Source of the DNA: Burkholderiales bacterium
Lineage (GTDB): Bacteria > Pseudomonadota > Gammaproteobacteria > Burkholderiales > SG8-39
Length of the DNA stretch: 64,000 bases
Direction of reading: 5' to 3'
Assembly: GCA_049802235.1 (NCBI GenBank)
Contig: JBARMB010000107.1
Span: forward strand, 103,874 to 167,873
A program made the translations under genes and the position numbers. Under the pieces are notes generated by a model. That model searched no databases. It was not told the DNA's origin and was given only the letters and a program-made list of their open reading frames with translations. Below, piece by piece: positions 29,941-64,000 of the stretch; the stretch's first letter is position 1; each line of letters begins with the position of its first letter.

Positions 29941-30391
29941 TGAACTGGGATATCCGTTAAACCCCGAACAGCGGGGGAAGAGCTTCCAGAGGGTTTCGCA
30001 AGCCGTCGCTTTTCCGATGTCTCCGCGCGGATCGCCGCGTCGCAGATCCGTTTGAGCGGATTTCCGCGCGTCGCGACGGATTTAATTTCTCTTATTATCT
30101 ACGGAGAGAGATCCCCTTGCCCATGTCCGGTCCGGCGTACGGACCGAGAGGATCCGCTCCCGCGGATTATGGCCGAAAGGCCGACAAACGACCGACGCAA
30201 TATATACCAAGGTCGCGACACCTTCACAAGCCCAGGTCTTGTGGACCCGCGTCGTGTCGCGTTTTCAGGCTGTCCGCTTGCCGCACCGAGACGCGACCCG
30301 CCGGAGTCCGGAAGCGCCGGAATCATGTGGGGCCCGCCGCAGCCGGCGGACTTCCCGGTTGCGCGCCACGCCCGGGCGGGAAGCCGGGAAT

Positions 30392-30610
30392 TCAGCCGGC
30401 GGCGCCGCGTTCCTTCAGCCCGAACCGCTTGAGCAGCGACTCGAGCGGGCATAACCCGGTGAAGCTGCTTTGCAGAAGATTGGCTCCCACAAACGCCGCG
30501 ACCCACAGCCAGTAGCCGCTGTGGAATAGCGGGCTCGCCGCCGCACCGAGCGCCAGCGACACCAGGACGAAACTTCCTGCAAAAGCGCGAATCGCACGTT
30601 CGAGCGTCAT
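30392..30610 (-). CDS. YgaP-like transmembrane domain protein (DUF2892)
   Basis: 72 aa with two TM helices and the FTGLCPLESLL motif typical of DUF2892. It starts 19 nt downstream of the RND gene. Confidence 0.7.
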   Translation of the reverse strand: MTLERAIRAFAGSFVLVSLALGAAASPLFHSGYWLWVAAFVGANLLQSSFTGLCPLESLLKRFGLKERGAAG

Positions 30611-30629
30611 TGATGTCTCCTCAGGGAAG

Positions 30630-33600
30630 TCAAGATTGGGGAAGAGGCTCCGGATCGGCGGCCGGAGCGCCGAGTTCTTTCCATTTGAGCGCGTAATAGA
30701 GCACCGGGATGACGACCAGAGTAAGAACGGTGGACACGAGGATGCCGAATATGAGCGACACGGCGAGGCCGTTGAAGATCGGGTCGTCGAGGATGAACAG
30801 CGCCCCGAGCATCGCCGCGACGCCGGTGAGGATGATCGGCTTGGCGCGCGTTGCGGCCGCGCCGATCACGGCGCGCTGGAAATCCACGCCCCCCTCGACC
30901 TGCAGGTTGACGAAATCGACCAGCAGGATCGAGTTCCTCACGATGATCCCGGCAAGCGCAATCATGCCGATCATCGAAGTCGCGGTGAATTGCGCGCCCA
31001 GGAGCGCGTGACCCGGCAGCACACCGATGACCGTGAGCGGGATCGGCGCCATGATGACGAGCGGAACGAGGTAGGAGCGGAATTGTGCCACCACCAGAAG
31101 GTAGATCAGGACGAGGCCCACCGCGTAGGCGATGCCCATGTCGCGGAAAGTCTCGTAGGTCACCTGCCATTCTCCGTCCCACTTGATGGCGTAGCCGCCG
31201 TATGCGTCCTCGGGCTGGCTGATGAAGTACTCGCCGAGCGTCCCTCCCTGCGGCGCCTTCAATGCGTGCACGCCGGCGCGCATGCCGAACATGCCATAGA
31301 GCGGGCTGTCGAGCTTTCCGGCCATGTCGGCGACGACGTAGGCCACCGGCAGCAGGTCCTTGTGATAGATGGTCTTGTCGCGCTGCGTCGGGGTTGCGAT
31401 CAGCAGTTCCGACAGCGGCACGAGATTGCCGTCCTGCGAGCGCACCCGCAGTTTGAGCAGCGATTCGGCGCTGCCCGCCTGCTCGGGCGGCAGGCTGATC
31501 CTGACCGGGACTTCGTACTTGGCGCGCCCGTCGTGGATCGGCGTCACCTCGTCGCCGGCGAGCGCGGCGCGCAGGGCGAGCACGATGTCGCGCTGCGCGA
31601 CGCCCATCAACGCGCTTTTCGCCCGGTCGACGCGCAACACCAGCTTCGGCGCGTCCTCGTCGACGCTCGAGTCGATGTCGATGATGTCCGGCGTGGCGGC
31701 GAAAAGACCGCGAAGCGACTGTGCCAGCTCAAGCTGGCCGGCGTAATCGGGGCCGTATACTTCCGCCACGATCGGCGACAGCACGGGCGGACCCGGCGGC
31801 ACCTCGACCACTTTCACGGTGGCGCCGTATCGGGCGCCGATCGCGTCTATCGCGGGGCGAACCCGAAGCGCGATATCGTGGCTTTTGCGGTCGCGGTGAT
31901 GCTTGTCTACGAGATTGACCTGGATGTCGCCCAACTCCGGCGCGGCGCGCAGGTAGTACTGCCGCACCAGGCCGTTGAAATTGATCGGAGCGCTGGTGCC
32001 GGCATAGGCCTGGTAGTCGGTGACTTCGGGCACGGTGGCAAGGAAGGCGCCGATTTCGTGCAACACCCGGCTGGTTTCCTCGAGCGGCGTGCCGGTGGGC
32101 ATGTCCACCATGACCTGGAACTCCGACTTGTTGTCGAACGGCAGCATCTTCAGCACCACGAGCTTCACCGCCACGAGCGAGATGCTGGCGGCGATCAGCA
32201 CGCCGATCGCGACGAAGAGCTTGCGCCGCGCGCGGGCGCCGTCGCGCCCGCGCAGGAACGGCGCGATGATGCGCTCGAACGCGCGCGCGGTGCGGCTGCT
32301 CGCGGCCTCGCCGTGCACTTGGGGATGCGCGGGGAGCAGCTTCAACGCCAGCCACGGCGTCACCACGAACGCGATCGCAAGCGAAATCAGCATGCCGATG
32401 CTGGCGTTGATCGGGATCGGGCTCATGTACGGCCCCATCAACCCGGTGACGAACGCCATCGGCAGCAGCGCGGCGATCACGGTAAAGGTGGCAAGAATGG
32501 TCGGGCCGCCGACTTCGTCCACCGCCAGGGGGATCATCAACTCGAGGGAGTCGCCGGCGTGGGCGCGATGGCGATGGATGTTCTCCACCACCACGATGGC
32601 ATCGTCGACCAGGATGCCGATGGAAAAGATGAGCGCAAACAGCGACACGCGATTGAGCGTGAAGCCCCAGACCCAGGAGGCGAACAGCGTGGCGGCAAGG
32701 GTCAGCAGCACCGCGCCGCCGACGATCACCGCCTCGCGCCTGCCGAGCGCTGCCCACACCAGCGCCACCACCGACAGCGTAGCAAAAATCAGTTTCTGGA
32801 TCAGCTTCATCGCCTTGTCGTTGGCGGTCTCGCCGTAGTTGCGGGTGAGCGCGACGGAGACGCCCTCGGGAATGATGCTGCCTTTCAACTGATCCGCGCG
32901 ACGGATGAGACGCTCGGCAACCTCGACCGCGTTCTCGCCAGGCTTCTTCGAGACGGCGATCGTGACCGCCGGAAACTCGGAGCCGGCCGCCACGGATTCG
33001 GCGCCCGCGTGCCCGAATCCGTGCCAGACATAACGCCCAGGCAGCTCCGGACCATCGACGACACGGGCGATGTCCTCGATGAACACCGGGCGCCCCTGCT
33101 GCTGCCCCACTACCAGCCGTGCGACGTCGCGCGCCGAAGACAGGAAAGTTCCCGCCTCGACCAACACCTCGCGGTTCGCGCCGATCAGACTCCCCGCGGG
33201 AAGCGAAACGTTGGCCGCGAGCAGCGCACCTCGCACGTCCTGAGCCGTCACCCGGGAGGACTGCATCCGTTCGGGATCGAGCAGAACGCGCACGCTGCGC
33301 CCGGGGCCGCCGATGGTCTGGACCACGCGGGTGCCCGGCACGCGCTTCAACTCGACTTCGGCGGCGTGCGCGACGCGCTCCAGGTCGAATGCCCCGCGCT
33401 GCGGATCGGCCGTCCACAGCGTCAGCGTCACGATCGGCACATCGTCGATTCCCATCGGCTTGATGATCGGCTCGCCGACGCCGAGGTCGGGCGACACCCA
33501 GTCCTTGTTCGAGTAAAGGGTGTCGTACAGCCGCACCAGCGCCTGGGTGCGGTCCTCGCCGACCTTGAACTGCACGGTCAGGATTGCGATGCCGGGCTTG

Positions 33601-33869
33601 GACACCGAGAACACGTGCTCGATGCCGGTGATCCTCGAGAGGACTTGCTCGGCGGGCGTCGCGACCAGCGCCTCCACGTCCCTTGCCGACGCTCCCGGGA
33701 ACGGGATCAGGACGTTTGCCATGGTGACGTTGATTTGCGGCTCCTCCTCGCGCGGGGTCACCGCGACCGAGAACGCCCCGAGCAGCAACAGCGCGAGCGC
33801 GATGAGCGGCGTCAGCTGCGAGGAAATGAAGAACCGGCTGATGCGTCCGGAAATGCCGAGCGGCTCCAT
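30630..33869 (-). CDS. RND efflux transporter permease (AcrB/AcrD/AcrF superfamily)
   Basis: 1079 aa with 12-TM RND architecture and the TM4 motif GILVDDAIVVVENI. Confidence 0.92.
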   Translation of the reverse strand: MEPLGISGRISRFFISSQLTPLIALALLLLGAFSVAVTPREEEPQINVTMANVLIPFPGASARDVEALVATPAEQVLSRITGIEHVFSVSKPGIAILTVQFKVGEDRTQALVRLYDTLYSNKDWVSPDLGVGEPIIKPMGIDDVPIVTLTLWTADPQRGAFDLERVAHAAEVELKRVPGTRVVQTIGGPGRSVRVLLDPERMQSSRVTAQDVRGALLAANVSLPAGSLIGANREVLVEAGTFLSSARDVARLVVGQQQGRPVFIEDIARVVDGPELPGRYVWHGFGHAGAESVAAGSEFPAVTIAVSKKPGENAVEVAERLIRRADQLKGSIIPEGVSVALTRNYGETANDKAMKLIQKLIFATLSVVALVWAALGRREAVIVGGAVLLTLAATLFASWVWGFTLNRVSLFALIFSIGILVDDAIVVVENIHRHRAHAGDSLELMIPLAVDEVGGPTILATFTVIAALLPMAFVTGLMGPYMSPIPINASIGMLISLAIAFVVTPWLALKLLPAHPQVHGEAASSRTARAFERIIAPFLRGRDGARARRKLFVAIGVLIAASISLVAVKLVVLKMLPFDNKSEFQVMVDMPTGTPLEETSRVLHEIGAFLATVPEVTDYQAYAGTSAPINFNGLVRQYYLRAAPELGDIQVNLVDKHHRDRKSHDIALRVRPAIDAIGARYGATVKVVEVPPGPPVLSPIVAEVYGPDYAGQLELAQSLRGLFAATPDIIDIDSSVDEDAPKLVLRVDRAKSALMGVAQRDIVLALRAALAGDEVTPIHDGRAKYEVPVRISLPPEQAGSAESLLKLRVRSQDGNLVPLSELLIATPTQRDKTIYHKDLLPVAYVVADMAGKLDSPLYGMFGMRAGVHALKAPQGGTLGEYFISQPEDAYGGYAIKWDGEWQVTYETFRDMGIAYAVGLVLIYLLVVAQFRSYLVPLVIMAPIPLTVIGVLPGHALLGAQFTATSMIGMIALAGIIVRNSILLVDFVNLQVEGGVDFQRAVIGAAATRAKPIILTGVAAMLGALFILDDPIFNGLAVSLIFGILVSTVLTLVVIPVLYYALKWKELGAPAADPEPLPQS

Positions 33870-33880
33870 GCGCGCGTCGG

Positions 33881-34963
33881 TTACTTCCCGCTGCTCTTCA
33901 ACTGGGCCAGCGCGCCCACCGGATCGAGCGCGACCTTTTCTCCGCGCCGTACCCCCGCCAGCACCTCGACGCCGGCTTCCCCCGCGGGCTCGCCGAGGCG
34001 AAGCTGGCGGAAATGGATCTCGCCATTTTCATTGACGATGTAGGTGCCGGCGACCTCGCTGCGGTAGACCACCGCCCGTGCCGGAATGATGAGCTTCCCG
34101 GAGCGCGCGAGGCTGAATTGCGCGCGCGCGAACATGCCGGGATAGGCGTCCTTGACGTCTCCGGGAAGATCGAGCCGAACCTGGGTGGTGTGGGTACGCG
34201 CATCCGCCGCGGGCAGCACCGTGACCGATTTCGCCTTGATCCGCAGGTTCAGGCTCGGTAACTCGACGACTGCCGAGCCCGCGGCGCGAACTTCCGCAAG
34301 CTTTGCCTGCGGCACGTTCGCCACCACCCGAAGATGTCCCGGTTCGTAGAGGGTAAACAACGCAACGCCGGGTTGCGCCATGTCGCCCTGCTGCAGGTGG
34401 CGTGCCGCGATGACGCCGGAAAACGGCGCAGTGATGGTGGCGTGGCCCTTCGCCGTGATTGCCTGCCCGGCGCCCGCCCTGGCCGCTGCGACCTGCGCCC
34501 GCGCCGCGTCGTAATCGGCCTGCGCCTTGTCGAGCGCGGCCTGGCTGATGAATTTCTGCTCGACCAGCCTTCTGGCGCGCTCCACGCTCGCCGTGGCATT
34601 GGGGAAGTCCGCCTCCGCGCGCGCGACCTGTGCCTCGCTGGACGCAACGAGTTGTGCGGCCTCGCGCGCATCGATGCGCGCGAGCACTTGCCCCCGGACA
34701 ACCGCATCGCCGGCATCGGCCCGCGTCTCCACGATGCGGCCGGCGATTTGCGCGGCCACGGTCGCCTGATTCAGCGCTTCGACGACGCCTTCGGCCGGCC
34801 AGGTCTGGTCGACTTCCTGCATGCCGACGACGGCCGTATCCGGCGGCGCGGCAACGGCGGCGACAGCAAACAGCGCCAAGACCGCGAACAGCCGCGAAAC
34901 GCCGCGGCGGAGCACAACGGAATTCCCTGCGAGAAGTGTCGCGCTCCGGTGGTGCATCAGCAT
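33881..34963 (-). CDS. RND efflux periplasmic adaptor (membrane fusion protein)
   Basis: A signal/anchor (LFAVLALFAVAAVAA) is followed by coiled-coil and beta-barrel regions of the HlyD/MFP family. ATG 34963 is chosen. An alternative GTG at 35026 would overlap the HMA gene's stop. Confidence 0.8.
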   Translation of the reverse strand: MLMHHRSATLLAGNSVVLRRGVSRLFAVLALFAVAAVAAPPDTAVVGMQEVDQTWPAEGVVEALNQATVAAQIAGRIVETRADAGDAVVRGQVLARIDAREAAQLVASSEAQVARAEADFPNATASVERARRLVEQKFISQAALDKAQADYDAARAQVAAARAGAGQAITAKGHATITAPFSGVIAARHLQQGDMAQPGVALFTLYEPGHLRVVANVPQAKLAEVRAAGSAVVELPSLNLRIKAKSVTVLPAADARTHTTQVRLDLPGDVKDAYPGMFARAQFSLARSGKLIIPARAVVYRSEVAGTYIVNENGEIHFRQLRLGEPAGEAGVEVLAGVRRGEKVALDPVGALAQLKSSGK

Positions 34964-35015
34964 TTTCTGATATTCAAATCCAAGAAAATTCCACGCCGGT
35001 TTCGCAACGGCAGCT

Positions 35016-35288
35016 TCAGGAAACACGGCCGATGGCGCAGCTCACGAACGACTTTGCCTTGGCTGTCGCCGAGCCCAATCCGGATACCGCGCCGCGCTCG
35101 GGGTAGCCGAGCTCAAGCAGCCGCCGGACCACCGCGGGGCGCGCAGTTTCATTGCCGTCGACGCGAACCTCCCCGGCGTCGATGTCCACCACGACGCCCT
35201 CCACGCCGCAAATTGCGGCCAACGCCCTGTCGATGGTCCTCGCGCACCCGCCGCACCTGATGTTCTCCACCGCGATCGTCCATGTCAT
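35016..35288 (-). CDS. heavy-metal-associated (HMA) domain protein, CopZ-like with C-terminal extension
   Basis: ATG 35288. About 65 aa of ferredoxin-like HMA fold carry a CGGC (CxxC) motif at the usual position (VENIRCGGCARTI). A ~25-aa tail contains one more Cys. Confidence 0.7.
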   Translation of the reverse strand: MTWTIAVENIRCGGCARTIDRALAAICGVEGVVVDIDAGEVRVDGNETARPAVVRRLLELGYPERGAVSGLGSATAKAKSFVSCAIGRVS

Positions 35289-35363
35289 GCCTGCCGCTCC
35301 TCGTATTGGTTGGACCCCCGACGTCCCCATCGCTGGCCCACCATCAATCATACTTGTTGTTAT

Positions 35364-35384
35364 ATACTATAGGGGGTATAGTAT
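35364..35384. promoter_or_regulatory. G5-centred perfect palindrome: candidate CsoR/RcnR-family operator within back-to-back promoters
   Basis: ATACTATA-GGGGG-TATAGTAT sits between the divergent HMA operon and the repressor gene. Flanking elements are TTGTTG-N17-TATAGT on the plus strand, and a TTGACA -35 (35387..35392) on the minus strand with its -10 inside the palindrome. Confidence 0.55.
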
Positions 35385-35428
35385 TTTGTCAACGGGGCCG
35401 TTGGCCCCATCATCAGGAGACACAAGCC

Positions 35429-35707
35429 ATGGAGCGTCTCAACCGGGAGGAAGACAAGCGCGCGCTGATCCTGCGTCTCAAGCGCGTCGAGGGCCAGTTG
35501 CGCGGCTTGCAGCATTTGATCGAGAGCGAAGCCCCCTGCGAGTCGATCGCCCAGCAGCTCTCCGCCGCGCGGCGGGCGCTCGACAAGGCGTTTCACGTCA
35601 TGGTTGCCTGCATGGTCGACCAGCATGTCACCGGCCACGGCCGCGACAAGACATCGAGCCGGACCGCAGTCGAGCAGCTGACCGGCATCCTGTCGCGCTA
35701 TAGTTGA
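35429..35707 (+). CDS. CsoR/RcnR/FrmR-family (DUF156) metal- or thiol-sensing transcriptional repressor
   Basis: ATG 35429 is preceded by AGGAGA. The 92-aa protein has the RLKRVEGQLRGLQHLIE helix and a conserved Cys (APCESI), typical of the family. Confidence 0.8.
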   Translation: MERLNREEDKRALILRLKRVEGQLRGLQHLIESEAPCESIAQQLSAARRALDKAFHVMVACMVDQHVTGHGRDKTSSRTAVEQLTGILSRYS

Positions 35708-35809
35708 GGGGACCACCCGCGCCGGCAACGGCGCGCGCCGCCGGCGCTCTTGAGAATCCGGCGGGTCGCAGCCATACTCATCGATGCAATCCGGCAAACG
35801 ACTCACACC

Positions 35810-36742
35810 GTGAAATTCAAGGACTATTACGCGACTCTCGGCATCGAGCGCAGCGCCTCGGATGGAGACATCAAGAAGGCGTATCGGCGGCTCGCGCGCA
35901 AATACCATCCCGACGTCTCCAAGGAAGCGAACGCCGAGGAAAAATTCAAGCAAGTGGCCGAAGCCTACGAAACGCTGAAGAATCCGGAGAAGCGCGCCGC
36001 CTACGACCAGCTCGGCCGCTATCAGACCGGGCAGGAGTTCCGGCCGCCGCCCGACTGGGAGGCGCGTTTTGGCCCCGGCGGCCTCGATGACGTTCTCGAC
36101 CTCGGCGACTTGTTCGCTCATTTCGGCGGCGGGCGCAGGGGACGAGGCGGTTTCGCCATGCCGGGGCAGGACTACGAAGTCACTGCCCGCATCAGCCTCG
36201 AGGATGCCTACCGCGGCACCGAGCTGGCGCTCAACCTCTCGGCCCCCGAAGCGGGTGCCGACGGCGGGATGCGGCGCGTGCCGCGCACGGTGCAGGTGCG
36301 GGTACCGAAGGGCGCGACCGACGGGCAGCGGCTGCGCGTTCCCGGCAAGGGGGGTCCCGGCGCCAACGGCGGGCAGGCGGGAGATCTGTATCTCAACATC
36401 GCACTCGATCCGCACCCGCTGTTTCGCGTCTCCGGCCACGATCTGTATCTCGAGCTGCCGGTGACGCCCTGGGAAACGGTGCTTGGCGCGCAGATCGAGG
36501 TGCCGACCATGGAGGGACGCATCGCCGTGACTATAAAGCCAGGCGCGAAGGCCGGGCAGAAGCTGCGCATCCCGGGTCGCGGACTGCCGCTGCCGCGGGG
36601 CGGCGCAGGCGACTTATATTGCGTGCTGTCGATCGTAATGCCCGCAGCGCCGAGCGAGCGTGAGAAAACGCTTTACCAGGAGCTGGCGGGAATCACGGAC
36701 TTCGACCCGCGCGCGCACCTGCGCCCAAGGAGCACCTCATGA
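35810..36742 (+). CDS. cbpA: curved-DNA-binding protein CbpA (DnaJ-like co-chaperone without zinc finger)
   Basis: The J-domain reads KDYYATLGI...KKAYRRLARKYHPD. A DnaJ C-terminal domain is present and there is no Cys-rich region. GTG 35810 is preferred because the family N-terminus is M-x-x-KDYY; an upstream TTG at 35750 is the alternative. Confidence 0.8.
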   Translation: MKFKDYYATLGIERSASDGDIKKAYRRLARKYHPDVSKEANAEEKFKQVAEAYETLKNPEKRAAYDQLGRYQTGQEFRPPPDWEARFGPGGLDDVLDLGDLFAHFGGGRRGRGGFAMPGQDYEVTARISLEDAYRGTELALNLSAPEAGADGGMRRVPRTVQVRVPKGATDGQRLRVPGKGGPGANGGQAGDLYLNIALDPHPLFRVSGHDLYLELPVTPWETVLGAQIEVPTMEGRIAVTIKPGAKAGQKLRIPGRGLPLPRGGAGDLYCVLSIVMPAAPSEREKTLYQELAGITDFDPRAHLRPRSTS

Positions 36743-37053
36743 CCGGCGAGCCGATCCTGCAATTTCTCGACGACGTCACCGAGATCGCCTTCGATGAGTT
36801 GCTCGAAGCTTCGGGTCTCGCGCGCGAGGAACTGCTCGAGTTGGTCGAGTTTGGCGTGTTTCACCCGCGCGGTCCTGCCGGCGAAGCCTGGCGTTTTTCC
36901 GCCCGTGCGATTGTCCTGGGCCGCCAGGCAGCGCGGCTGCGCGACGACTTCGACCTGAATCCCTCCGGCATGGCCCTGGCGCTGACTTATATCGAGCAAA
37001 TCGAGGAACTCGAACGGCGGCTGCGCGAGCTGGAGTGCCTTCTCCTCCGCTAG
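36739..37053 (+). CDS. cbpM: chaperone modulatory protein CbpM
   Basis: 104-aa MerR-like small protein overlapping cbpA by 4 bp, the classical cbpAM arrangement. Confidence 0.7.
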   Translation: MTGEPILQFLDDVTEIAFDELLEASGLAREELLELVEFGVFHPRGPAGEAWRFSARAIVLGRQAARLRDDFDLNPSGMALALTYIEQIEELERRLRELECLLLR

Positions 37054-37114: not shown

Positions 37115-37519
37115 TCAGAACGGCAGCGCCTCGCGATCGTTCAAAGCCACCCAGCCCCGCGCGATGCGATAAATCACCCACAACCCGGCGGCCACGAATA
37201 CCAGCCAGGCAAGCGGAATGCCGATCAGAGTAAGAATGAGGATCGCCCCGGTGATGCACCAGAGCAATCCGAACCAGAAGGTGCGAATCTGCCAGCGGAA
37301 GTGCGATTCCAGAAACGTGCCCCGCGCCTGGCTGCGCTTGGCATAGTTGAGGATCACGGCAATGATCGAGGGCCAGCCGAATACAAAGGCGCCGACAATG
37401 GTCACGACGCTGGTGATGCCGATCACGACTGAAAGCGAGTGCAGCCCGTAGATCACATGGGTAAGCCTGACCAGCGACGGATTCGCCGCTCCACCTGGCG
37501 GCGCGTTTTCCTCTGCCAC
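37115..37519 (-). CDS. small integral membrane protein (about four TM helices; possibly DUF4870-like)
   Basis: 134 aa with hydrophobic segments (VVIGITSVVTIVGAFVFGW, FWFGLLWCITGAILILTLIG, LAWLVFVAAGLWVIY). The family assignment is a guess. Confidence 0.5.
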   Translation of the reverse strand: MAEENAPPGGAANPSLVRLTHVIYGLHSLSVVIGITSVVTIVGAFVFGWPSIIAVILNYAKRSQARGTFLESHFRWQIRTFWFGLLWCITGAILILTLIGIPLAWLVFVAAGLWVIYRIARGWVALNDREALPF

Positions 37520-55587: not shown

Positions 55588-57549
55588 CTACTCGCCCAGC
55601 CCCATCTTGATGTAGCCGGTCGGGCACACGTCCATGCAGATGTGGCAGCCGATGCAGCGGTCGTAGTCGGTATACACGTAGCGACCAATGGTCGATTGCG
55701 CCTTTGGCGTCTTTTTCACCGCGGTCTGCGGGCAATAGACGACGCAGTTGTCGCACTCGAAGCACAGCCCGCAACTCATGCAGCGCTTGGCCTCGGCCTG
55801 CGCCTGCGCCTCGGCGAGCGCGACGATGCGTTCCTCGAAGTTGCCGAGCGCGCTTTTTTCGTCGAGCGTGATGGTCTTGCGCCGGTTGCGCGGGGTGAAC
55901 GGGAAATGGCCGAGAAACAGCTCGGTGTGCGGAATCACGTAGCGGTCGGAGCGGTTCTCGTAGTTGTGCACGGCGACGTTGGCGCTGTCGGTGCCGCGCA
56001 GCGGCTCGTGGGTTTCCCCAACCTTGAGGCCCTTTTCCACCAGCTTGCGCATGAGATCGAAGTGATGCACGTCGATCTTCGGGCGCTTCTCCAGTTCTTC
56101 GCCGGCCAGGAAGCGGTCGATGCCCTCGGCGGCGATGGCGCCGTGGCCGATTGCCGTGGTCAGCAGGTGCGGCCGCACGATGTCGCCGCCGACGAACACG
56201 CCCTGCTTGCCGGTGACCTGATAATTCTTGTCCGCGGCGACCGCGCCCTTGCCGTTGTCGAATTCCTCCAGGCCGGAGAAATCCACCGCCTGGCCAACGG
56301 CCGAGACGATGAGGTCCGCGGCGATATCCTCCTCGGTGCCGTCTATTTTCTTGATTTCGAGCCGCCCGCCGACGAATTTAGCTTCGCATCGGGCCACGCG
56401 CAGCGCTGTGGCGCGGCCGTTGGCCGAGCGCACCACCGCGACCGGCATCAGGCCCCCGCGGATGGCGATGCCCTCGGCCCGCGCCTGCTCGATCTCGTGC
56501 TTGTTGGCCTGCATCTTGTCGATCGCAAATACGGAGGTAAGCGTCACTTCGGCGCCCTGCTTGGCGGAAATTTCGGCGACGTCGTGCGCCATGTGACCGG
56601 CGATGGCGTGCTCCGGGCGGTCCGTCTCGTGCGTCTGCTCGATGTGGCCGAGGCGCCGCGCCACCGTGGCGACGTCGATCGACGTATCGCCGCCGCCCAC
56701 CACCACGACGCGCTTGCCGACGTGGCGCATGCGGCCGTCGTTGAAGGCGCGCAGGAACGCGGTCGCAGTGACGATGTTGGGCGCTTCATTCCCCGGGCAG
56801 GGCAGCGCACGGCCCGCCTGCGCGCCGAGACCGAGAAACACGGCATCGAACCCGGCGCGGATCTGCTCCATCGTGACATGCGTGCCGACGCGGCAGTTCA
56901 TGCGCGTTTTCACGCCGAGATCGAGAATGCGCCTGATCTCCGCGTCGAGCACCTCGCGCGGCGTGCGGAACCCCGGAATGCCGTAGCGCATCATGCCGCC
57001 GAGCTCGGCGTGCTCATCGAAGATGGTGACCTCATGTCCTTTGCGCGCGAGCTGGTAGGCCGCGGACAGTCCGGCCGGTCCGCCGCCGATCACGGCGACC
57101 TTCCTGCCGGTCGTGGCTGCAGGCTTCTCGTAAACGAAGTTTTTCGCGATCGCGTTGTCGCCGATGAAGTGCTCGACCGAATTGATGCCGACGAAATCCT
57201 CGACCTGGTTGCGGTTGCAGCCGGATTCGCACGGCGCCGGGCAGACGCGCCCCATCACCGAAGGAAAGGGATTGGCGTCGGTGAGGCGGCGGAAGGCGTA
57301 CTCCTGCCAGCTCATCGGATTCTGGCCCGCGGGCGGCTTCTCGATGCCGCGCACGATGTTGAGGTAGCTGCGGATGTCCTCGCCCGCGGGGCAGCTGCCC
57401 TGGCAGGGCGGCGTCGCCTGCACGTAGGTCGGGCACTTGTGCGAGTGATCGGCGTCGAAAATCTTGTCCTGCCAGCGTTTCCATTGGGCATCGCCTTCGC
57501 GGAAACGGCGGAAGGTCAGGTTGGTGGATTGTTCGGTCGCGTTTGACAT
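55588..57549 (-). CDS. dsrL: DsrL, NAD(P)H:acceptor oxidoreductase (GltD-like with C-terminal ferredoxin domain)
   Basis: 653 aa with N-terminal Fe-S Cys motifs, two dinucleotide-binding folds (VAVIGGGPAGLSAAYQLA; VVVVGGGDTSIDVA) and a C-terminal 2x[4Fe-4S] ferredoxin motif (CIGCHICMDVCP). Confidence 0.85.
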   Translation of the reverse strand: MSNATEQSTNLTFRRFREGDAQWKRWQDKIFDADHSHKCPTYVQATPPCQGSCPAGEDIRSYLNIVRGIEKPPAGQNPMSWQEYAFRRLTDANPFPSVMGRVCPAPCESGCNRNQVEDFVGINSVEHFIGDNAIAKNFVYEKPAATTGRKVAVIGGGPAGLSAAYQLARKGHEVTIFDEHAELGGMMRYGIPGFRTPREVLDAEIRRILDLGVKTRMNCRVGTHVTMEQIRAGFDAVFLGLGAQAGRALPCPGNEAPNIVTATAFLRAFNDGRMRHVGKRVVVVGGGDTSIDVATVARRLGHIEQTHETDRPEHAIAGHMAHDVAEISAKQGAEVTLTSVFAIDKMQANKHEIEQARAEGIAIRGGLMPVAVVRSANGRATALRVARCEAKFVGGRLEIKKIDGTEEDIAADLIVSAVGQAVDFSGLEEFDNGKGAVAADKNYQVTGKQGVFVGGDIVRPHLLTTAIGHGAIAAEGIDRFLAGEELEKRPKIDVHHFDLMRKLVEKGLKVGETHEPLRGTDSANVAVHNYENRSDRYVIPHTELFLGHFPFTPRNRRKTITLDEKSALGNFEERIVALAEAQAQAEAKRCMSCGLCFECDNCVVYCPQTAVKKTPKAQSTIGRYVYTDYDRCIGCHICMDVCPTGYIKMGLGE

Positions 57550-57558
57550 CGATTTCTC

Positions 57559-59052
57559 CTACTTCGGCCCGAGCCGGATTGCGTTGGACACGAGCTGATG
57601 AACCCCGCCCACCATGCTCATCTTGAACTTGTAATAGGGCAGGACTTTGGTGAACTGCGCCTTGCAGATGGCGCAGATGGTCGCCATGAAATTGACGCCG
57701 TCGCTATCGACGACGGACTTCAGCGCTTCCATGCGCGGCAGCGCGCCCTTGACGCGCAGATCGAGCAGTTCGTCGGTCAGCAGCCCGCCGCCGCCGCCGC
57801 AGCAGAAGGTCTTCTCACGGATGCTGTCGGCGTGCATTTCAACGAACTTGTTCGCCACCGCGCGGATGATGGCGCGCGGGATCTCGAACTGGCCGCCGGG
57901 CATGTCGCCCATGCGCGAGGCGCGCGCCACGTTGCAGGAGTCGTGGAACGTGACCACGTACTGGTCGTTGGCGCTTTTGTCGAACTGGATCGCGCCGCGC
58001 TGAATCAGATCGTAAGTCAATTCGCAGATATGCTGCGGCACCGGGTAGCGCGAATCGAGGAAATCGAACGGGCCGATCAGCGTGTTCCAGAAGCTGTAGG
58101 CGACGCGCCAGGCATGGCCGCATTCGCCGACGACGATGCGCTTCACGCCTAGGTCGAGCGCCGCCTCGCGCACGCGCATGGCGATCGACTTCATCTGGCC
58201 GTAGTTGCCGATGAACAGGCCGAAATTGCCGGCCTCGGAGGCATGCGTCGAGAGCGTCCAGCGGATGCCGGCGGCGTGGAACACCTTGGCGTAGCCGATC
58301 AGGCTGAACACGTGCGGCTCGGCGAAGAAGTCGGCCGAAGGCACGACTACCAGCACTTCGGCGCCCTTTTCGTTGAGCGGCAGGCGCACGTCCTGGCCGG
58401 TTTCCTCCTTGAGATCTTCCTCGATGCTCTGCAGGGTGTTCTCGAGCGCCGGGCCGGGAAGGCCGAGGTTGTTTCCGATCTTGTGTACCTTGCCGATAAT
58501 CTCGTTGGAGTACTTCTGCCCCACGCCGATGGAGTCCATGATCTCCTTCGCGGCCATGGTGATTTCGGCGGTGTCGATGCCGTAGGGGCAGAAAACCGAG
58601 CAGCGTCGGCATTCGGAACACTGGTTGAAATAGGTGTTCCAGTCGTCGAGTACTTCCTTGGTGAGGTCTTCGGCGCCGACCAGCTTGGGGAACAGCTTGC
58701 CCGACCAGGTGAAGTAGCGGCGGTAGACTTTGCGCAGCAGGTCCTGGCGCGCGACCGGCATGTTCTTGGGGTCGCCCGTGCCGAGGAAATAGTGGCACTT
58801 GTCGGTGCAGGCGCCGCAGTGGACACACGCATCGAGATAGACCTTCAGCGAACGGTACTTGCCCAGCAGCTCGCCAAGCTTGAAGATCGCCTTGTCCTGC
58901 CAACCCTCGACGAGCTCACCGGGGAAGCCGAGCGCCTGCTGCATCTGCGCGTTGGCGACATACGGCTTGCTCGCCGCCATGGCGCCGGCCTGCAGGATCG
59001 GAATGACCGGATACGGCTTCAGCGGCGGCGCGATGACTTCGGCAGTGGCCAT
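57559..59052 (-). CDS. dsrK: DsrK, HdrD-like catalytic Fe-S subunit
   Basis: 497 aa with ferredoxin-type clusters (CVHCGACTDKC; CSECRRCSVFCP) and a C-terminal CCG region (FCCGGGGG). Confidence 0.88.
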   Translation of the reverse strand: MATAEVIAPPLKPYPVIPILQAGAMAASKPYVANAQMQQALGFPGELVEGWQDKAIFKLGELLGKYRSLKVYLDACVHCGACTDKCHYFLGTGDPKNMPVARQDLLRKVYRRYFTWSGKLFPKLVGAEDLTKEVLDDWNTYFNQCSECRRCSVFCPYGIDTAEITMAAKEIMDSIGVGQKYSNEIIGKVHKIGNNLGLPGPALENTLQSIEEDLKEETGQDVRLPLNEKGAEVLVVVPSADFFAEPHVFSLIGYAKVFHAAGIRWTLSTHASEAGNFGLFIGNYGQMKSIAMRVREAALDLGVKRIVVGECGHAWRVAYSFWNTLIGPFDFLDSRYPVPQHICELTYDLIQRGAIQFDKSANDQYVVTFHDSCNVARASRMGDMPGGQFEIPRAIIRAVANKFVEMHADSIREKTFCCGGGGGLLTDELLDLRVKGALPRMEALKSVVDSDGVNFMATICAICKAQFTKVLPYYKFKMSMVGGVHQLVSNAIRLGPK

Positions 59053-59056
59053 GGCG

Positions 59057-59800
59057 TTACCTAAGAGACTTCGCCTTTTCCAGCTCGGCGGCCCACGGCG
59101 CGAGATGGCGCACTTCGCGTGGATTGTCGGCCTGGTTGCGCCCGGGACTGAAGAACACGCCCGGCGCGTGCAGCAGCTTCGAGTACGGGAAAATCGCGAT
59201 CAGCAGCGCGACCAGCGTGAGGTGCACGAACAGCCCCGGGTGCGTCGGCAGCGGCTGCCAGTCGAACACCATCAGGCCGAGAAAGAACGCCTTCACCGCG
59301 ACGATGTCGGTGTGGTTCGCGAATTTCATCAGCAGCCCCGATGCGCCGATGGCCAGGATCAGCGCGAGCATCAGATGATCCGAGGGCGTGGAGATATAGC
59401 GGATGCGCTCCACCAGGAATCGCCGCGCCCACAGGCCGGCGAGACCCGCCACCAGCGCGAAGCCGCCGTAGATGCCGAACGGCTGGATCCAGCCGACCCA
59501 GAACCACACCGGCTCGGTGAAGTAGCGCAGGTGCCGCGCCAGCACCAGCAGCAGCGCGACATGGAACATCCAGCCGAACAGCCAGATCCAGAGGTTTGCC
59601 TTGAACAGGCTCTCGAACAGCGTCACCTCGCGGAACATCCGCAGCACCACGCCGCTCGCGGTCGTCGGGGCGGGCGTGGTCGGGATCTTGAGCGGCACCG
59701 GGGTACGGGCATAGTCGTAAATGCGCCAGGCAAGCCCGGTCACGCACAACAAAGTTGCGGCGTAGAACAGCAGCGCGAAAAAGAGGGTTGCCACTGTCAT
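59057..59800 (-). CDS. dsrM: DsrM, NarI-like dihaem cytochrome b membrane subunit
   Basis: 247 aa with about five TM helices and conserved His residues. It sits between dsrC and dsrK. Confidence 0.85.
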   Translation of the reverse strand: MTVATLFFALLFYAATLLCVTGLAWRIYDYARTPVPLKIPTTPAPTTASGVVLRMFREVTLFESLFKANLWIWLFGWMFHVALLLVLARHLRYFTEPVWFWVGWIQPFGIYGGFALVAGLAGLWARRFLVERIRYISTPSDHLMLALILAIGASGLLMKFANHTDIVAVKAFFLGLMVFDWQPLPTHPGLFVHLTLVALLIAIFPYSKLLHAPGVFFSPGRNQADNPREVRHLAPWAAELEKAKSLR

Positions 59801-59825
59801 TGCGAAAAACGCTGATCCGGATCAC

Positions 59826-59896
59826 CTCCCGCTTTCGCGGGAGGAGCGGCTGCGCGTCCGGAATGACGTCTCACTTGGCCGCGGGTTTCACCCGCG
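59826..59896 (-). other. two GC-rich hairpins between dsrC and dsrM
   Basis: On the minus strand, CGCGGG-TGAAA-CCCGCG (59880..59896) abuts the dsrC stop. CTCCCGC-GAAA-GCGGGAG (59826..59843) follows. Neither has a clear T-run. Confidence 0.4.
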
Positions 59897-59897
59897 C

Positions 59898-60236
59898 TCA
59901 GACGCAACCGGTCGGCTTGGGCAGGCCGGCAATCTTGCAGGCCTGTTTCGCCGGTCCATAGGGAAACAGCTCGTAGAGATACTGGCTGTTGCCTTTTTCG
60001 GAGCCGAGCTTCTTGCCGATCGCCTTGGTGAGCACCCGCACCGCCGGTGCGATCTGAAATTCGTTGTAATACTCGCGCAGGAAATTGATGACTTCCCAGT
60101 GATTCGGAGTCATTTCGAGATTCTCCTGCTTGGCAATGGTGCCGGCGATGTCTTCGTTCCAGTCCGAGAGGTTGACGAGATACCCTTCCTCGTCCGTCTC
60201 GATCGTCTTGCCGCCTACTTCGATAGCCATATGCAC
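59898..60236 (-). CDS. dsrC: DsrC, sulfur-transfer substrate protein of DsrAB
   Basis: 112 aa. The C-terminal arm reads ...KQACKIAGLPKPTGCV and carries both conserved cysteines. Confidence 0.92.
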   Translation of the reverse strand: MHMAIEVGGKTIETDEEGYLVNLSDWNEDIAGTIAKQENLEMTPNHWEVINFLREYYNEFQIAPAVRVLTKAIGKKLGSEKGNSQYLYELFPYGPAKQACKIAGLPKPTGCV

Positions 60237-60249
60237 TCCTTTGATGTCG

Positions 60250-60552
60250 CTACAGCCAGGATTGGCAGGTGCTGTGCTTCGCCACCAGGTCGACGAAGCC
60301 GCCGTAGTCCACGAGCTTCACGCCCTCGGTGGCCGCATTTGCCATGCCCCGCGCCTCCAGGTCAGGCGTCAGAACATAGATTTCAAGGCGCGCCATCGCC
60401 GCACACAGCTTGGCTTCCGCCGCGCCGCCGCGCGTGGCGGCATAGACGCCGTCCTCGATCAGAAGCACGGCTCCGCCTGCCTGCGCCGTCTCGAGGCAGC
60501 TGTCGAGCGCATTGCGTTCGGTCGGGGACTTGTTGACGATGTGCAGCACCAT
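60250..60552 (-). CDS. dsrH: DsrH, sulfur relay subunit
   Basis: ATG 60552 (MVLHIVNKSPTERNALDSCLE...) is preceded by AAGGA. It ends ...CQSWL like known DsrH proteins. Confidence 0.8.
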   Translation of the reverse strand: MVLHIVNKSPTERNALDSCLETAQAGGAVLLIEDGVYAATRGGAAEAKLCAAMARLEIYVLTPDLEARGMANAATEGVKLVDYGGFVDLVAKHSTCQSWL

Positions 60553-60626
60553 GTTCCTTAGTTTCCAAGATTTATTTCTGACCCGGGGGATATGCAAGGG
60601 GGCGTGCCCCCTTGTTCAAACCCCTG

Positions 60627-61001
60627 TCAGAAGCTGAACAGCACGTCCTGCCGCTCCATCAGCTTGCCCAGATCGGCGCGCGATACCACCTCTACCGGCA
60701 CGCACATGTCATCGGCGGTAAGGCCTCGCGCCTTGAGCGACTCCTGCTCCACGTACAGCTTGGTGACGTCGTAGTCCTCCAGCGCCCGGTAGGTGGGCTG
60801 GAAGTTCTTCATCTCGATGCCCTTGGTCTGGTGCCCCTTTTTCAGCTGGTAGACCCCGTCGTCCAGGAACGCCAGCGACACGTCCTGGTCGAAGGCCGCC
60901 GCAATCAGCACCACCTCCAGCGACTCCAGCGCGTAAATGGTGCCGTACGGCGCCTTGCGGTTGACGTACATGAACTTCTTGATCTGGCCGTGCTCGCTCA
61001 T
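60627..61001 (-). CDS. dsrF: DsrF, sulfur relay subunit
   Basis: 124 aa with KKFMYVNRKAPYGTIYALESLEVVLIAAAFDQDV and a C-terminal ...VLFSF, closely resembling Allochromatium DsrF as I recall it. Confidence 0.85.
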   Translation of the reverse strand: MSEHGQIKKFMYVNRKAPYGTIYALESLEVVLIAAAFDQDVSLAFLDDGVYQLKKGHQTKGIEMKNFQPTYRALEDYDVTKLYVEQESLKARGLTADDMCVPVEVVSRADLGKLMERQDVLFSF

Positions 61002-61011
61002 CGCGCCTCCA

Positions 61012-61371
61012 TCAGTCCCCGAACACCAGCATCCGGTCGGCCTGGATGCCGGACTCGATCAACTGGCCCAGCCCTGAAATGCGGAATCCCGGCGCGAGAA
61101 TCTCGTCCTTGATTCCGCGTCGCAGCGCCGCCGCGACGCACACCACCAGGTCGAGCCCGTGTTCCTGCGCCAGCTTTGACCAGCGGACGACGATGTTGCG
61201 GTCGTCATTCGGCGGCTCGGTGAGCCGCGTCGCGTTGTCGACCCCGTCGTGATAGAAGAACACGCGATGGATCTTGTGCCCCCTGGCCAGCGCCGCCTTG
61301 CAGAAGTGATAGGCGCTGTCCGAGGCCTGGTGGGTGTAAGGCCCTTCATTGACCAGGATACCGAAAATCAT
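61012..61371 (-). CDS. dsrE: DsrE, sulfur relay subunit with active-site Cys
   Basis: ATG 61371. The 119-aa protein has NEGPYTHQASDSAY, the VVCVAAALRRG active-site Cys region and a C-terminal FGD. This is the C-terminal part of a 430-aa run-on ORF. Confidence 0.88.
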   Translation of the reverse strand: MIFGILVNEGPYTHQASDSAYHFCKAALARGHKIHRVFFYHDGVDNATRLTEPPNDDRNIVVRWSKLAQEHGLDLVVCVAAALRRGIKDEILAPGFRISGLGQLIESGIQADRMLVFGD

Positions 61372-61385
61372 GCCGGATGATATTT

Positions 61386-62465
61386 CTAGAATCGGATATG
61401 CGTCGAGGCATTGAGACTGGCCCGCGCCCCGCGCCAGTCGTCGATGAGGTACTTGGTAAAGGTCAGCCCGGTCTTCTCGAAAAAGCGCGGCCAGCCGATC
61501 CGGTCGATCCAGTCGGACAGGCGCTCCCAGGGGCGCGCGTCCTCCTTGTAGACGTGCAGGATCTTCTTCACCACCTCGCCGACTTCGGGCCACCGGGGCG
61601 GATTGTTGGGCAGACCCGAAACGACCATTTTCATGAAGGTCGGCTTGGCGCGGGCGTTCGAATTCTTGCCGCCGACCCAGATCGCCAGCTTGGTATGCTC
61701 GGGATCGTTGATCTGCATCGGCGGGCAGGGCGGATAACAGGCGCCGCAGCACATGCATTTCTTCTCGTCGATTTCCAGCGACGGCTTGCCGTTCACCAGC
61801 GCCGGGCGGATCGCGGCGACCGGGCACCTGGCGACCACGGCCGGCCGCTCGCAGACGTTGGCGACCAGATCGTGGTTGATCTTGGGCGGCTTGGTGTGCT
61901 GCACGATGATGGCGATGTCGGCCTGGCCGCCGCAGTTGATCTCGCAGCACGAGGTGGACATGTGCACCCGGTTGGGCATCTCCTCGTGCCTGAACTCGTG
62001 ATAGAGCTCGTCCATCAGCGCCTTCACCACGCCCGAGGCATCGGTGCCGGGAATGTCGCAGTGCAGCCAGCCCTGCGTGTGCGCAATCATCGAAACCGAG
62101 TTGCCGGTGCCGCCGACGGGGAACCCGTTTTTCTCCAGGGCCTCGACCAGGGGAGCGACCTTTTTCTGCTCCGCGACCATGAACTCGATGTTGGAACGAA
62201 TGGTGAAGCGCACGTGTCCGTCGGCATACTGGTCGCCGATATCGCACAGCTTCCTGATGGTATAGACGTCCATCTGCCGCTGCGTGCCGGCGCGCACCGT
62301 CCATACTTCCTCGCCTGAATGCGATACATGATGCAGCACCCCCGGGCGCGGGCGGTCGTGGTACTTCCAGTTGCCGTAGTTCTTCAACAGGGTCGGATGC
62401 ATGTACTGCTTGTTGTCCGGGACCCCGGTTTCCTTGGCTCTACGCATCGGCTGGGCTTGCGCCAT
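61386..62465 (-). CDS. dsrB: dissimilatory sulfite reductase beta subunit (oxidative type)
   Basis: ATG 62465 (MAQAQPMRRAKETGVPDNKQYMHP...). Sirohaem/Fe-S Cys motifs and a ferredoxin insert (CMCCGACYPPCP) are present. Confidence 0.93.
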   Translation of the reverse strand: MAQAQPMRRAKETGVPDNKQYMHPTLLKNYGNWKYHDRPRPGVLHHVSHSGEEVWTVRAGTQRQMDVYTIRKLCDIGDQYADGHVRFTIRSNIEFMVAEQKKVAPLVEALEKNGFPVGGTGNSVSMIAHTQGWLHCDIPGTDASGVVKALMDELYHEFRHEEMPNRVHMSTSCCEINCGGQADIAIIVQHTKPPKINHDLVANVCERPAVVARCPVAAIRPALVNGKPSLEIDEKKCMCCGACYPPCPPMQINDPEHTKLAIWVGGKNSNARAKPTFMKMVVSGLPNNPPRWPEVGEVVKKILHVYKEDARPWERLSDWIDRIGWPRFFEKTGLTFTKYLIDDWRGARASLNASTHIRF

Positions 62466-62493
62466 GACTTGTCTCCAGGCTTCGTGACGCCGC

Positions 62494-63789: not shown

Positions 63790-64000
63790 CGCTTTTCCTC
63801 CTGTCCTGCGTAAATACATTTCCCCCAGGTTCGCCATGCTAAACGCCGCGGCAAGGGGTCGACCATTACTCGGGCAGGGAAGCGTGCCCCCCCTGATCGG
63901 GTAATGTCCTACCTACCCGAAAGGAGTATCAACCCTCATCCAAGGCGGTGATTTTCCGCCCGCCCCACGGGTGCCATAGTGCCCCGATTCAGGGGTGCGC

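Follow-up and report, generated by a model that had tools for sequence, protein, structure and literature searches.

Does a repressor of a metal-sensing fold that faces an HMA-fold protein and an RND efflux pump control the export of copper, or does it answer to reactive sulfur? This question is raised by a five-gene module in a stretch of 64,000 nucleotides from a Burkholderiales bacterium (contig JBARMB010000107.1, positions 103,874 to 167,873; the whole stretch is called the window below and has a G+C content of 65%). Here a gene for a CsoR/RcnR-family repressor is transcribed divergently from genes for an HMA-fold protein, a periplasmic adaptor (MFP), an RND permease and a DUF2892 protein. 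We give an even chance to the reading that the module is a thiol-switch-controlled efflux system for reactive sulfur stress. Judged from sequence and comparative data, the repressor would be a thiol switch opened by persulfide or polysulfide, and the pump would expel sulfane-sulfur species or a metal-sulfide adduct via an outer-membrane factor (OMF) encoded elsewhere. An earlier inspection of the bare letters (the sequence-only reading) had cautiously proposed that a reactive sulfur or metal-sulfur species, and not simply copper, is handled here, and this proposal is favoured by the residues of the pump, by its linkage to DUF2892 and by the neighbours of both the pump family and the repressor clade.

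The five open reading frames described in that reading, with their coordinates, gaps and divergent spacing, were all confirmed by the open reading frame list and by Pfam (Table 1). The gaps HMA-MFP, MFP-RND and RND-DUF2892 measure 52, 11 and 19 nt, respectively, and the four genes presumably form a single transcript. Repressor and HMA gene are separated by exactly 140 bp (35289-35428). The start of the MFP gene was left between 34963 and an alternative GTG at 35026, because the N-termini are not conserved among the relatives.

Table 1. Features of the module and of its surroundings in the window.
Feature	Position	Strand	Remarks
CsoR/RcnR-family repressor	35429-35707	+	92 aa; PF02583, E 1e-18, 67.7 bits against a cut-off of 22.8; ribosome-binding site AGGAGA upstream
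HMA-fold protein	35016-35288	-	90 aa, small, cytoplasmic; PF00403, 46.9 bits; ribosome-binding site GAGGAG upstream
Periplasmic adaptor (MFP)	33881-34963	-	TIGR01730, 195 bits against a cut-off of 94.9
RND permease	30630-33869	-	1079 aa; PF00873, E 1e-146
DUF2892/YgaP-like_TM protein	30392-30610	-	72 aa, two-helix; PF11127, E 1.4e-14, 54.3 bits against a cut-off of 25.3
Candidate operator ATACTATAGGGGGTATAGTAT	35364-35384		Perfect palindrome ATACTATA-GGGGG-TATAGTAT; candidate by sequence and conservation
Putative sigma-70-like promoter of the HMA operon	-35 35392-35387, -10 35369-35364	-	10/12 match to consensus only
Two GC-rich hairpins	30331-30390	-	Directly 3' of the DUF2892 stop codon; RNAfold -34 kcal/mol per 60 nt
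Insertion and following basic stretch in RND (residues ~625-672)	~31854-31997	-	Placement tentative at 22% identity
Non-coding gap	29941-30391		450 bp; between DUF2892 and an ABC-transporter cluster (ABC-permease gene)
CbpA (DnaJ-like) and CbpM (MerR_2)	35750-37053		Also flank the pump operon in several relatives
Predicted membrane protein	37115-37519	-	134 aa; without Pfam match; beside ubiD
Reverse-type dsr cluster	55588-63837	-	Two NIR_SIR proteins (dsrA/dsrB-like); DsrC (PF04358, 164 bits); DsrK-like CCG/Fe-S protein; DsrL-like flavoprotein
Small DsrEFH-like open reading frames	60250-61001

Comparative evidence comes from the pump family in other genomes. Relatives of the RND permease number thousands; the 120 best matches listed are all at least 65% identical, all but one at least 71%, and those among them that bear a name are all annotated as generic efflux pumps of AcrB or RND type. 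In species-representative genomes a scan gave at least 599 confirmed pump loci, from which 80 of 59-72% identity in beta- and gammaproteobacteria were kept. Sulfur oxidisers are found among these 80 loci (Thioalkalivibrio, Thiohalophilus, Allochromatium, Thiothrix, Parabeggiatoa, Sedimenticolaceae, Gallionella and Ca. Tenderia). The MFP gene lies 5' of RND in essentially all of them. DUF2892 is co-directional with the pump in 47; it stands immediately downstream of RND in 40, 14 of which show a 4-nt stop/start overlap, and just upstream of MFP in another arrangement seen in 5. Further away, a Vibrio replicon (57% identity) has DUF2892 divergent from MFP-RND, and on plasmid 1 of Paracoccus denitrificans PD1222 (43% identity) the order is metallo-beta-lactamase (MBL)-DUF2892-YeeE-DUF6691-sulfurtransferase, followed by a two-Cys ArsR gene divergent from cytochrome c-cytochrome b-DUF2892-MFP-RND. 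MFP-RND-DUF2892 thus forms a core that is conserved across alpha-, beta- and gammaproteobacteria. The earlier statement that the parts match no standard system was too strong, as this core is common and the CsoR/HMA front end alone is unusual.

To describe the surroundings of the 80 pump loci, the adjoining open reading frames were clustered and then searched with representative proteins. Sulfide:quinone oxidoreductase (SQR) is present in 17 loci, rhodanese, the Zn-ribbon thioredoxin Trx2 and a two-Cys BigR-type ArsR in 13 each, a second ArsR type with a C-terminal LCDLVC in 17, a CsoR-family gene in 9, OsmC in 8 and a P-type ATPase in 4. At least one sulfur-stress gene besides DUF2892 is found in 38 of the 80 loci, whereas HMA, CusF, CusB-like and CusA-like genes occur in none. 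One of the SQR neighbours was confirmed as type I (530 bits against the SQR of Acidithiobacillus ferrooxidans), and in 3 of the 17 SQR loci (L007, L025, L036) the SQR gene is placed between MFP and RND. A TolC-like OMF (PF02321 confirmed) accompanies the pump in 12 loci, directly downstream in most, and the pump family is therefore probably tripartite; the absence of an OMF gene noted before holds for the 64-kb window and not as a trait of the family. Taken over these genomes, the core unit belongs to sulfide and sulfane-sulfur detoxification clusters in other proteobacteria.

Among the regulators in these clusters, the two-Cys ArsR neighbours have their best matches in Xylella BigR, YgaV, HlyU and SqrR, and both of their cysteines align with the BigR pair. 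The second ArsR/SmtB type, which lacks that pair, often heads operons that include SQR and sits divergent, upstream of MFP, in L018, L020-L023, L035, L037-L039, L042, L050, L053, L060, L067 and L075; it may be another uncharacterised thiol sensor. The window shares with the BigR/SqrR/YgaV regulons that a two-Cys ArsR adjoins the same pump family (in the loci counted above and in Paracoccus) and that YgaP carries DUF2892 with the same cysteine. It differs from them in that its sensor has the CsoR and not the ArsR fold and that its DUF2892 is not fused to a rhodanese.

Published data point in the same direction. In Azospira suillum PS, Bar-seq under sulfide gave a single hit, the operon Dsui_3443-3440 (MFP, SQR, 'cation/multidrug efflux pump', hypothetical); its transcripts rose from log2 ~1-4 to ~9-11 with H2S, and a separate DUF2892 gene was ~9-fold up (PMC5358917). 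Its order MFP-SQR-RND-small hypothetical is that of L007, L025 and L036, a likeness by gene order only; unlike the Azospira operon, that of the window has no SQR and carries the CsoR/HMA cassette instead. A 2025 survey of two-Cys ArsR sulfane-sulfur sensors described a whole group encoded beside RND transporters, with DUF2892 unmentioned (PMC12423496). With MFP-RND-DUF2892 and a dithiol repressor of the CsoR clade, the window's operon fits this pattern of sulfane-sulfur-linked RND operons, of which the Azospira operon is the only one known to be induced by sulfide. We found no published study that deals with the substrate of the pump family, with a partnership between DUF2892 and the pump, or with this repressor clade; likewise, no paper on the Paracoccus denitrificans PD1222 cluster and no Allochromatium transcriptomics mentioning AcrB were found.

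The pump itself was placed relative to the hydrophobe/amphiphile (HAE) and heavy-metal (HME) exporters with profile models and alignments. Every NCBIfam RND subfamily model scored far below its cut-off, namely RND_permease_2 with 453 bits and a second RND_permease model with 347 (cut-off 1250 for both), HAE-1 (TIGR00915) with 274 against 940 and CusA/CzcA (TIGR00914) with 230.9 against 701. The nearest PDB structures are MdtB (225 bits), a MexY-type pump and TriC, followed by ZneA (164) and AcrB (163). Identity is 22-23% to each of E. coli AcrB (22.7%), MdtB, MdtC and CusA (22.0%), the same distance that separates CusA from AcrB. On these scores the window's RND belongs to a separate deep clade, distinct from HAE-1 and HME.

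The residues agree with this placement. The motif LVDDAIVVVEN reported earlier is present, and in the alignment the AcrB relay residues D407, D408, R971 and T978 correspond to D422, D423, R1008 and T1015, and K940 of transmembrane helix (TM) 10 has given way to an Arg978 that is invariant in the family; in CusA the equivalents of D408 and K940 are Ala and Glu. The CusA triad Met573/623/672 is absent, with Val, Leu (or Val) and a gap in the pump family, as are the transmembrane Met pairs. The previous statement that the pump is not of the CusA/CzcA type is borne out by this. The label 'AcrB-like' goes too far, given the near equal identities to AcrB and CusA and the loss of the AcrB Phe pocket, where F136, F178, F610, F615, F617 and F628 are exchanged for V, I, Q, T, Y and Q (positions approximate at 22% identity). 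Features in common with AcrAB-TolC/AcrZ and MdtABC are the Asp-Asp pair of TM4, the equivalents of Arg971 and Thr978 and the build of an RND trimer; the pump differs from these HAE-1 systems in its low identity, the invariant Arg for Lys940, the missing Phe pocket and the score on their model. RND and MFP are both free of cysteine, and the MFP has neither an HMBD nor a Met-rich N-terminus and stays below the cut-offs of the NCBIfam CzcB and CusB models. Where AcrB has its switch loop, the alignment tentatively places an insertion of ~12 residues in the pump family, and the invariant basic residues R636, R641, R659, R661, H664 and R671 follow it. A metagenomic RND homologue of 1241 aa (P0116) was considered as a fusion and rejected, as it shows instead an exact internal duplication of ~155 residues (about 35-190) and is probably an assembly artefact, with no DUF2892 or other domain fused.

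In DUF2892, where the previously noted motif FTGLCP is present, C54 lies just after TM2 and is invariant in 48 aligned sequences; other invariant residues are G12, F40, G42, N44, L45, Q47 and G64. In E. coli YgaP, C54 is aligned with the cysteine of an FCG motif that likewise follows TM2 directly; YgaP is a sulfurtransferase of the membrane, and its C-terminal domain is the one by which PF11127 is defined. Unlike the rhodanese-fused YgaP, the protein of the window is free-standing. The positive-inside rule puts both of its termini in the cytoplasm, so the cysteine would lie at the cytoplasmic face of the membrane. DUF2892 is probably a pump accessory. AcrZ, which works with AcrAB-TolC, is a precedent for a small membrane protein that is encoded with a pump or acts on it.

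The repressor was compared with the characterised CsoR-family sensors. In an ungapped alignment to the FrmR and CstR structures the positions X, Y and Z are taken by C37, M62 and H66, and the second cysteine, C61, is found at Y-1. An alignment of the clade (the window protein, 16 database homologues and several regulators of related loci) shows C37 and C61 to be nearly invariant, Y to be Met or Leu and Z to vary between Arg, Gln and His, with Arg or Gln in most of the clade and Gln in the HMA-linked relatives L083 and P0122. Many clade members of 88 aa start with MxHLH; the window protein, which starts with MERLN, and the HMA-linked relatives do not. Against the family fingerprints summarised in PMC8643695 and PMC11672702, the Cu(I) pattern C-H-C is not matched, as X is present, Y is M62 and not His, and Z, which is H66 in the window, is only variably kept. 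The CstR pattern C..C(+29) is not matched either, because the second cysteine stands at +24 and Z is His, Arg or Gln. Of the RcnR pattern H-C-H-H and the FrmR pattern P-C-H, His3, Pro2 and His60 are missing in the repressor, with Met62 in place of the last. Although FrmR is the best PDB and NCBIfam match and has operators of a similar type, roles as a formaldehyde (FrmR) or Ni/Co (RcnR) sensor were rejected, since the repressor has neither Pro2 nor His3 nor a His at Y, and no frmA or rcnA gene is nearby; the NCBIfam scores are 33.6 against a cut-off of 133 for FrmR and 24.5 against 138 for RcnR.

The genomic context of the clade points to sulfur. Members are divergent from Sulf_transp/DUF6691/MBL (the classic set of persulfide dioxygenase, PDO, with YeeE), from OsmC, and from a DedA-rhodanese fusion with RND-DUF2892-DUF4395-cytochrome c-flavocytochrome c sulfide dehydrogenase (FCSD)-AhpC/Trx a few kb off. 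Others face HMA-MFP-RND-DUF2892-DUF302-OsmC, in this case with DUF2892-SulP-TehB 3' of the regulator, or the HMA-less MFP-RND-DUF2892-DUF302-OsmC, or DUF2892-Trx2-MFP-RND, or HMA-OsmC, and two (L071, L080) adjoin SQR. Sulfide- and sulfite-detoxification neighbours, which characterise CstR-type regulators, are in this way found at the level of the clade. In the cassette-bearing lineages L083 (1196-4010), L175 (7395-10125) and L176/L177 the regulator is followed 3' by genes for another DUF2892 protein, for an anion transporter of the SulP/STAS type and for a methyltransferase of the TehB type, a hint that the regulon may also deal with anions or chalcogen oxyanions.

One of the closest known systems is CstR (Staphylococcus aureus, Enterococcus faecalis, Streptococcus; PDB 7MQ1/7MQ2). 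Shared with it are the PF02583 fold, the N-terminal cysteine at the start of helix 2, only two conserved cysteines with no metal-ligand set, the rhodanese, PDO and sulfur-transporter neighbours and a GC-centred palindromic operator. The differences are the shifted second cysteine (+24 and not at Z, +29), Met/Leu for the wedge Asn, an operator with AT arms around G5 that is nearer to RcnR/FrmR sites, and the proteobacterial distribution of the clade. Persulfide-sensing proteins of the CsoR fold have been described solely from Firmicutes and Actinobacteria, and clusters 6-9 of the CsoR-family sequence similarity network are uncharacterised (PMC8643695, PMC11672702).

The G5-centred palindrome that had been noticed in the divergent gap is there and has no second copy in the window even with 3 mismatches allowed (0 expected); it is also the sole AT-rich perfect 8-5-8 inverted repeat. 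Perfect 8-5-8 inverted repeats as such number 13 in the window against ~1.7 expected from shuffles, all of them GC-rich save the operator. The minus-strand promoter match TTGACA-17-TAGTAT (35392-35364) reads into HMA, and the palindrome covers its spacer and -10; it also abuts the -35 of a weaker promoter match facing into the repressor gene. The layout TTGACA-N3-ATACTATA-N5-TATAGTAT is kept beside regulators of the clade in the window, L083, L096-L098, L175-L177, L179-L180, L011 and L085-L089, and the conserved operator is found where the clade faces HMA, DUF2892-Trx2-MFP-RND or OsmC. Scanning with up to 2 mismatches gave 9 hits in shuffled sequence across 1.96 Mb, with sites of 0-1 mismatch counted apart. 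The 2-mismatch sites in L175-L177, L179 and L180 were therefore accepted only because they lie inside the CsoR/HMA gap and match the site of L083, and a match in L106 was dismissed. The regulator of L181 (57% identical) has another operator, ATACCCCCAGGGGTAT, and hence the operator is not uniform over the whole clade.

The HMA-fold protein carries the motif VENIKCGGCA, invariant in its family, with C12 and C15 in CGGC, and a conserved C-terminal tail AKAKSFVSCAIGR with C84; all three cysteines are invariant in 82 family members. Matches in the PDB cover the core only, and the tail with C84 is without structural counterpart. The curated NCBIfam CopZ/CopP/MerP models all remain below cut-off (best CopZ_AFE_1862, 36.5 against 85). 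At least 359 metagenomic relatives were found and the neighbourhoods of 80 loci (L095-L174) were tallied. Rhodanese is a neighbour in 16, CusB(HMBD)/CusA-like pumps in 9-11, an MBL/PDO-like gene directly upstream in 6, DUF302 and P-type ATPases in 5 each and a MerR-type gene in 1. In marine gammaproteobacterial contigs (e.g., L116 5741-7282 and L147 5972-7282) the three-Cys HMA gene stands repeatedly 3' of rhodanese and an MBL-fold, persulfide-dioxygenase-like gene; in other contigs the family is located 5' of CusB(HMBD)/CusA-like pumps.

How the two halves of the module came together can be followed in close relatives. The CsoR/HMA cassette is rarer than the MFP-RND-DUF2892 core. Seven such contexts were compared, six found via an RND 80-83% identical to that of the window and one via the closest regulator homologue, P0122. 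One of them has CsoR alone and two lineages have CsoR and HMA; those free of the cassette are flanked, as the window is, by PBP4, CbpA/CbpM and UbiD. In L193 CbpA followed by CbpM is divergent from MFP-RND-DUF2892, and in the window CsoR-CbpA-CbpM is divergent from HMA-MFP-RND-DUF2892, so that the two arrangements agree apart from the cassette, which looks like an insertion between CbpA and the pump genes of the window. The MFP of the window is 65% identical to that of a cassette-free relative and only 51% to those of the cassette-bearing lineages, which indicates that the cassette joined the pump more than once, or moves, and this argues for a functional pairing over chance.

The reactive-sulfur reading suggests the following mechanism. 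With reduced thiols the repressor, a CsoR-fold tetramer, would sit on ATACTATA-G5-TATAGTAT over the -10 and block HMA-MFP-RND-DUF2892, and probably also its own promoter, whose -35 abuts the operator. A rise in persulfide or polysulfide through sulfide oxidation would lead to the persulfidation or bridging of Cys37 and Cys61' in facing protomers, a chemistry like that of CstR; a thiophilic metal or an oxidant might trigger the same change. The modified repressor would leave the DNA and the operon would be expressed. The proton-driven pump, with its relay Asp422/Asp423/Arg978, would then, working with the outer-membrane channel encoded elsewhere, pick up its substrate in the membrane or periplasm and expel it; this substrate would be polysulfide, S0, an organic persulfide or a metal-sulfide adduct. 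DUF2892 may act as accessory subunit or Cys relay, and HMA as a cytoplasmic thiol buffer or carrier. A bolder version, which we consider rather unlikely as a whole, would make MFP-RND-DUF2892 the missing envelope exporter of zero-valent sulfur or polysulfide, by which Gram-negative sulfide oxidisers would send what SQR/FCSD produce out of inner membrane and periplasm into the surroundings. In it the DUF2892 cysteine would be an obligatory persulfide relay or gate, HMA a carrier of sulfane sulfur or Cu-sulfide and not a Cu chaperone, and the repressor the founder of a proteobacterial persulfide-sensing CsoR branch with a shifted Cys pair.

Several points weigh against a role in reactive sulfur stress. 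CsoR and HMA are both missing from four of the seven close-relative contexts, in which no regulator of any kind adjoins the pump, and in the window the pump has no adjoining SQR, rhodanese or PDO gene; phmmer searches with family-linked queries detected no OMF, SQR, rhodanese, Trx2, OsmC or PDO gene within the 64 kb. The first gene of the operon encodes an HMA-fold CxxC protein, the regulator belongs to a fold known for metal sensing, and relatives of the HMA protein also stand beside CusB(HMBD)/CusA-like pumps, P-type ATPases and a MerR-type gene. The second cysteine of the repressor is off the CstR position, and with Z=His and Y=Met a Cys/Cys(Met)/His site for Cu(I) is conceivable. A wider stress by thiols, oxidants or chalcogens would account equally well for the neighbours OsmC, AhpC and TehB. 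Finally, orthology to the Azospira operon is a matter of gene order alone, and we infer the substrate and inducer of the module, as well as the cotranscription of its genes, from sequence and comparison.

Of the other explanations, a general role in thiol-reactive stress or in metal-sulfide handling survives best, although we hold it to be improbable rather than probable. Here the repressor would answer any thiol oxidant or electrophile (peroxides, HOCl, tellurite/selenite, quinones, reactive sulfur, soft metals) and the pump would expel damaged or conjugated hydrophobic products or metal-sulfide/chalcogenide adducts, without a single cognate substrate. The regulons of relatives, which hold OsmC, DUF302, AhpC/Trx-like proteins, TehB-type and other S-adenosylmethionine-dependent methyltransferases and SulP, would suit such a role; CstR itself is quick to react with H2O2 in vitro (PMC11672702), and the authors of the Azospira study suggested metal-sulfide export (PMC5358917). 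The CsoR of Acidithiobacillus caldus binds copper, undergoes persulfidation and regulates the gene of a persulfide dioxygenase close to an RND cluster (PMC12455602), and so the copper-reactive sulfur crosstalk reported there shows that copper-sulfur crosstalk through the CsoR fold is real. However, the most specific companions of the pump are SQR, rhodanese and BigR-type sensors and not peroxide or electrophile regulons, and DUF2892 is the membrane domain of the sulfurtransferase YgaP.

Efflux of Cu/Ag or another soft metal is the next explanation and, in our view, an unlikely one. The repressor would sense Cu(I) via Cys37, Cys61 (or Met62) and His66, the HMA protein would be CopZ-like and the RND would remove Cu(I) from periplasm or cytoplasm. 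A PF02583 regulator with a PF00403 CxxC protein is the classic copper pairing, and fold and divergent small HMA protein are indeed shared with the Cu(I)-sensing CsoR systems of Mycobacterium tuberculosis, Bacillus subtilis, Thermus thermophilus and A. caldus. The Thermus CsoR has a C-H-H site, and network clusters 6-7 were guessed to be Cu sensors (PMC8643695); the copper-binding CsoR of A. caldus near its RND cluster and the HMA relatives beside Cus-like pumps and P-type ATPases fit as well. However, the C-H-C/C-H-H ligands are not kept, with Y being Met or Leu and Z variable over the clade and Gln precisely in HMA-linked relatives, and the operon has no copA, CusF or P-type ATPase gene. CusCFBA of E. 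coli likewise combines an RND, an adaptor and a small metal-binding protein under a metal-responsive type of regulator; the module differs from it in having no Met triad or relay, no CusF or CusC, an adaptor without metal-binding motifs and a repressor instead of the CusRS two-component system. The low score of the pump on the CusA/CzcA model and the contrast between absent HMA/Cus genes and frequent sulfur-stress genes in the pump loci also stand against copper.

An ordinary multidrug or amphiphile RND pump with coincidental neighbours, as the database name 'AcrB multidrug efflux pump' and the HAE-type Asp-Asp motif in TM4 would have it, is very improbable in view of the absent Phe cluster, the identity of only 22-23% to AcrB, MdtB and MdtC, the translational coupling of DUF2892, the recurrent sulfur-gene neighbours over three proteobacterial classes and the conserved dedicated operator.

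Regarding the rest of the window, the genes dsrAB and dsrC together with dsrK-like and dsrL-like genes at 55.6-63.8 kb uphold the earlier description of the organism as a dsr-carrying sulfur oxidiser; small DsrEFH-like open reading frames lie within the same region. The hairpins 3' of DUF2892 may mark the end of the operon, a weak assignment, as they have no U-tract and a terminator scan made no call there. They belong to a non-coding gap that is rich in GC hairpins, several of them of high stability (about -30 to -34 kcal/mol per 60 nt), and that gave no Rfam match at the gathering threshold. Like the predicted membrane protein of the window, an unannotated open reading frame of similar size is found beside ubiD in L081 and L191.

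RND pumps, thiol sensors of the CsoR fold and YgaP domains are already known, and the gene link between sulfane-sulfur sensors and RND pumps has been noticed in passing. As far as we found, the tight coupling to DUF2892, the RND clade, the proteobacterial CsoR clade with its shifted Cys pair and operator, and the three-Cys HMA family are undescribed. The annotation of the pump family as 'multidrug efflux AcrB' is probably misleading. With its translational coupling to a Cys protein of the YgaP type, its operons shared with SQR and its position under BigR-type ArsR, a second ArsR type as a possible thiol sensor and a CsoR clade, the pump family is a concrete candidate for the disposal of the hydrophobic, reactive sulfane sulfur formed by SQR and FCSD and for the passage of sulfur across the outer membrane to external deposits. 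If true, the repressor clade would extend persulfide sensing by the CsoR fold from Gram-positives to proteobacteria with a different Cys geometry and would be useful for understanding how Cu(I) and reactive sulfur specificity separate, and the three-Cys HMA family, found beside rhodanese/PDO genes as well as Cus-type pumps, bears on the crosstalk between copper and sulfide.

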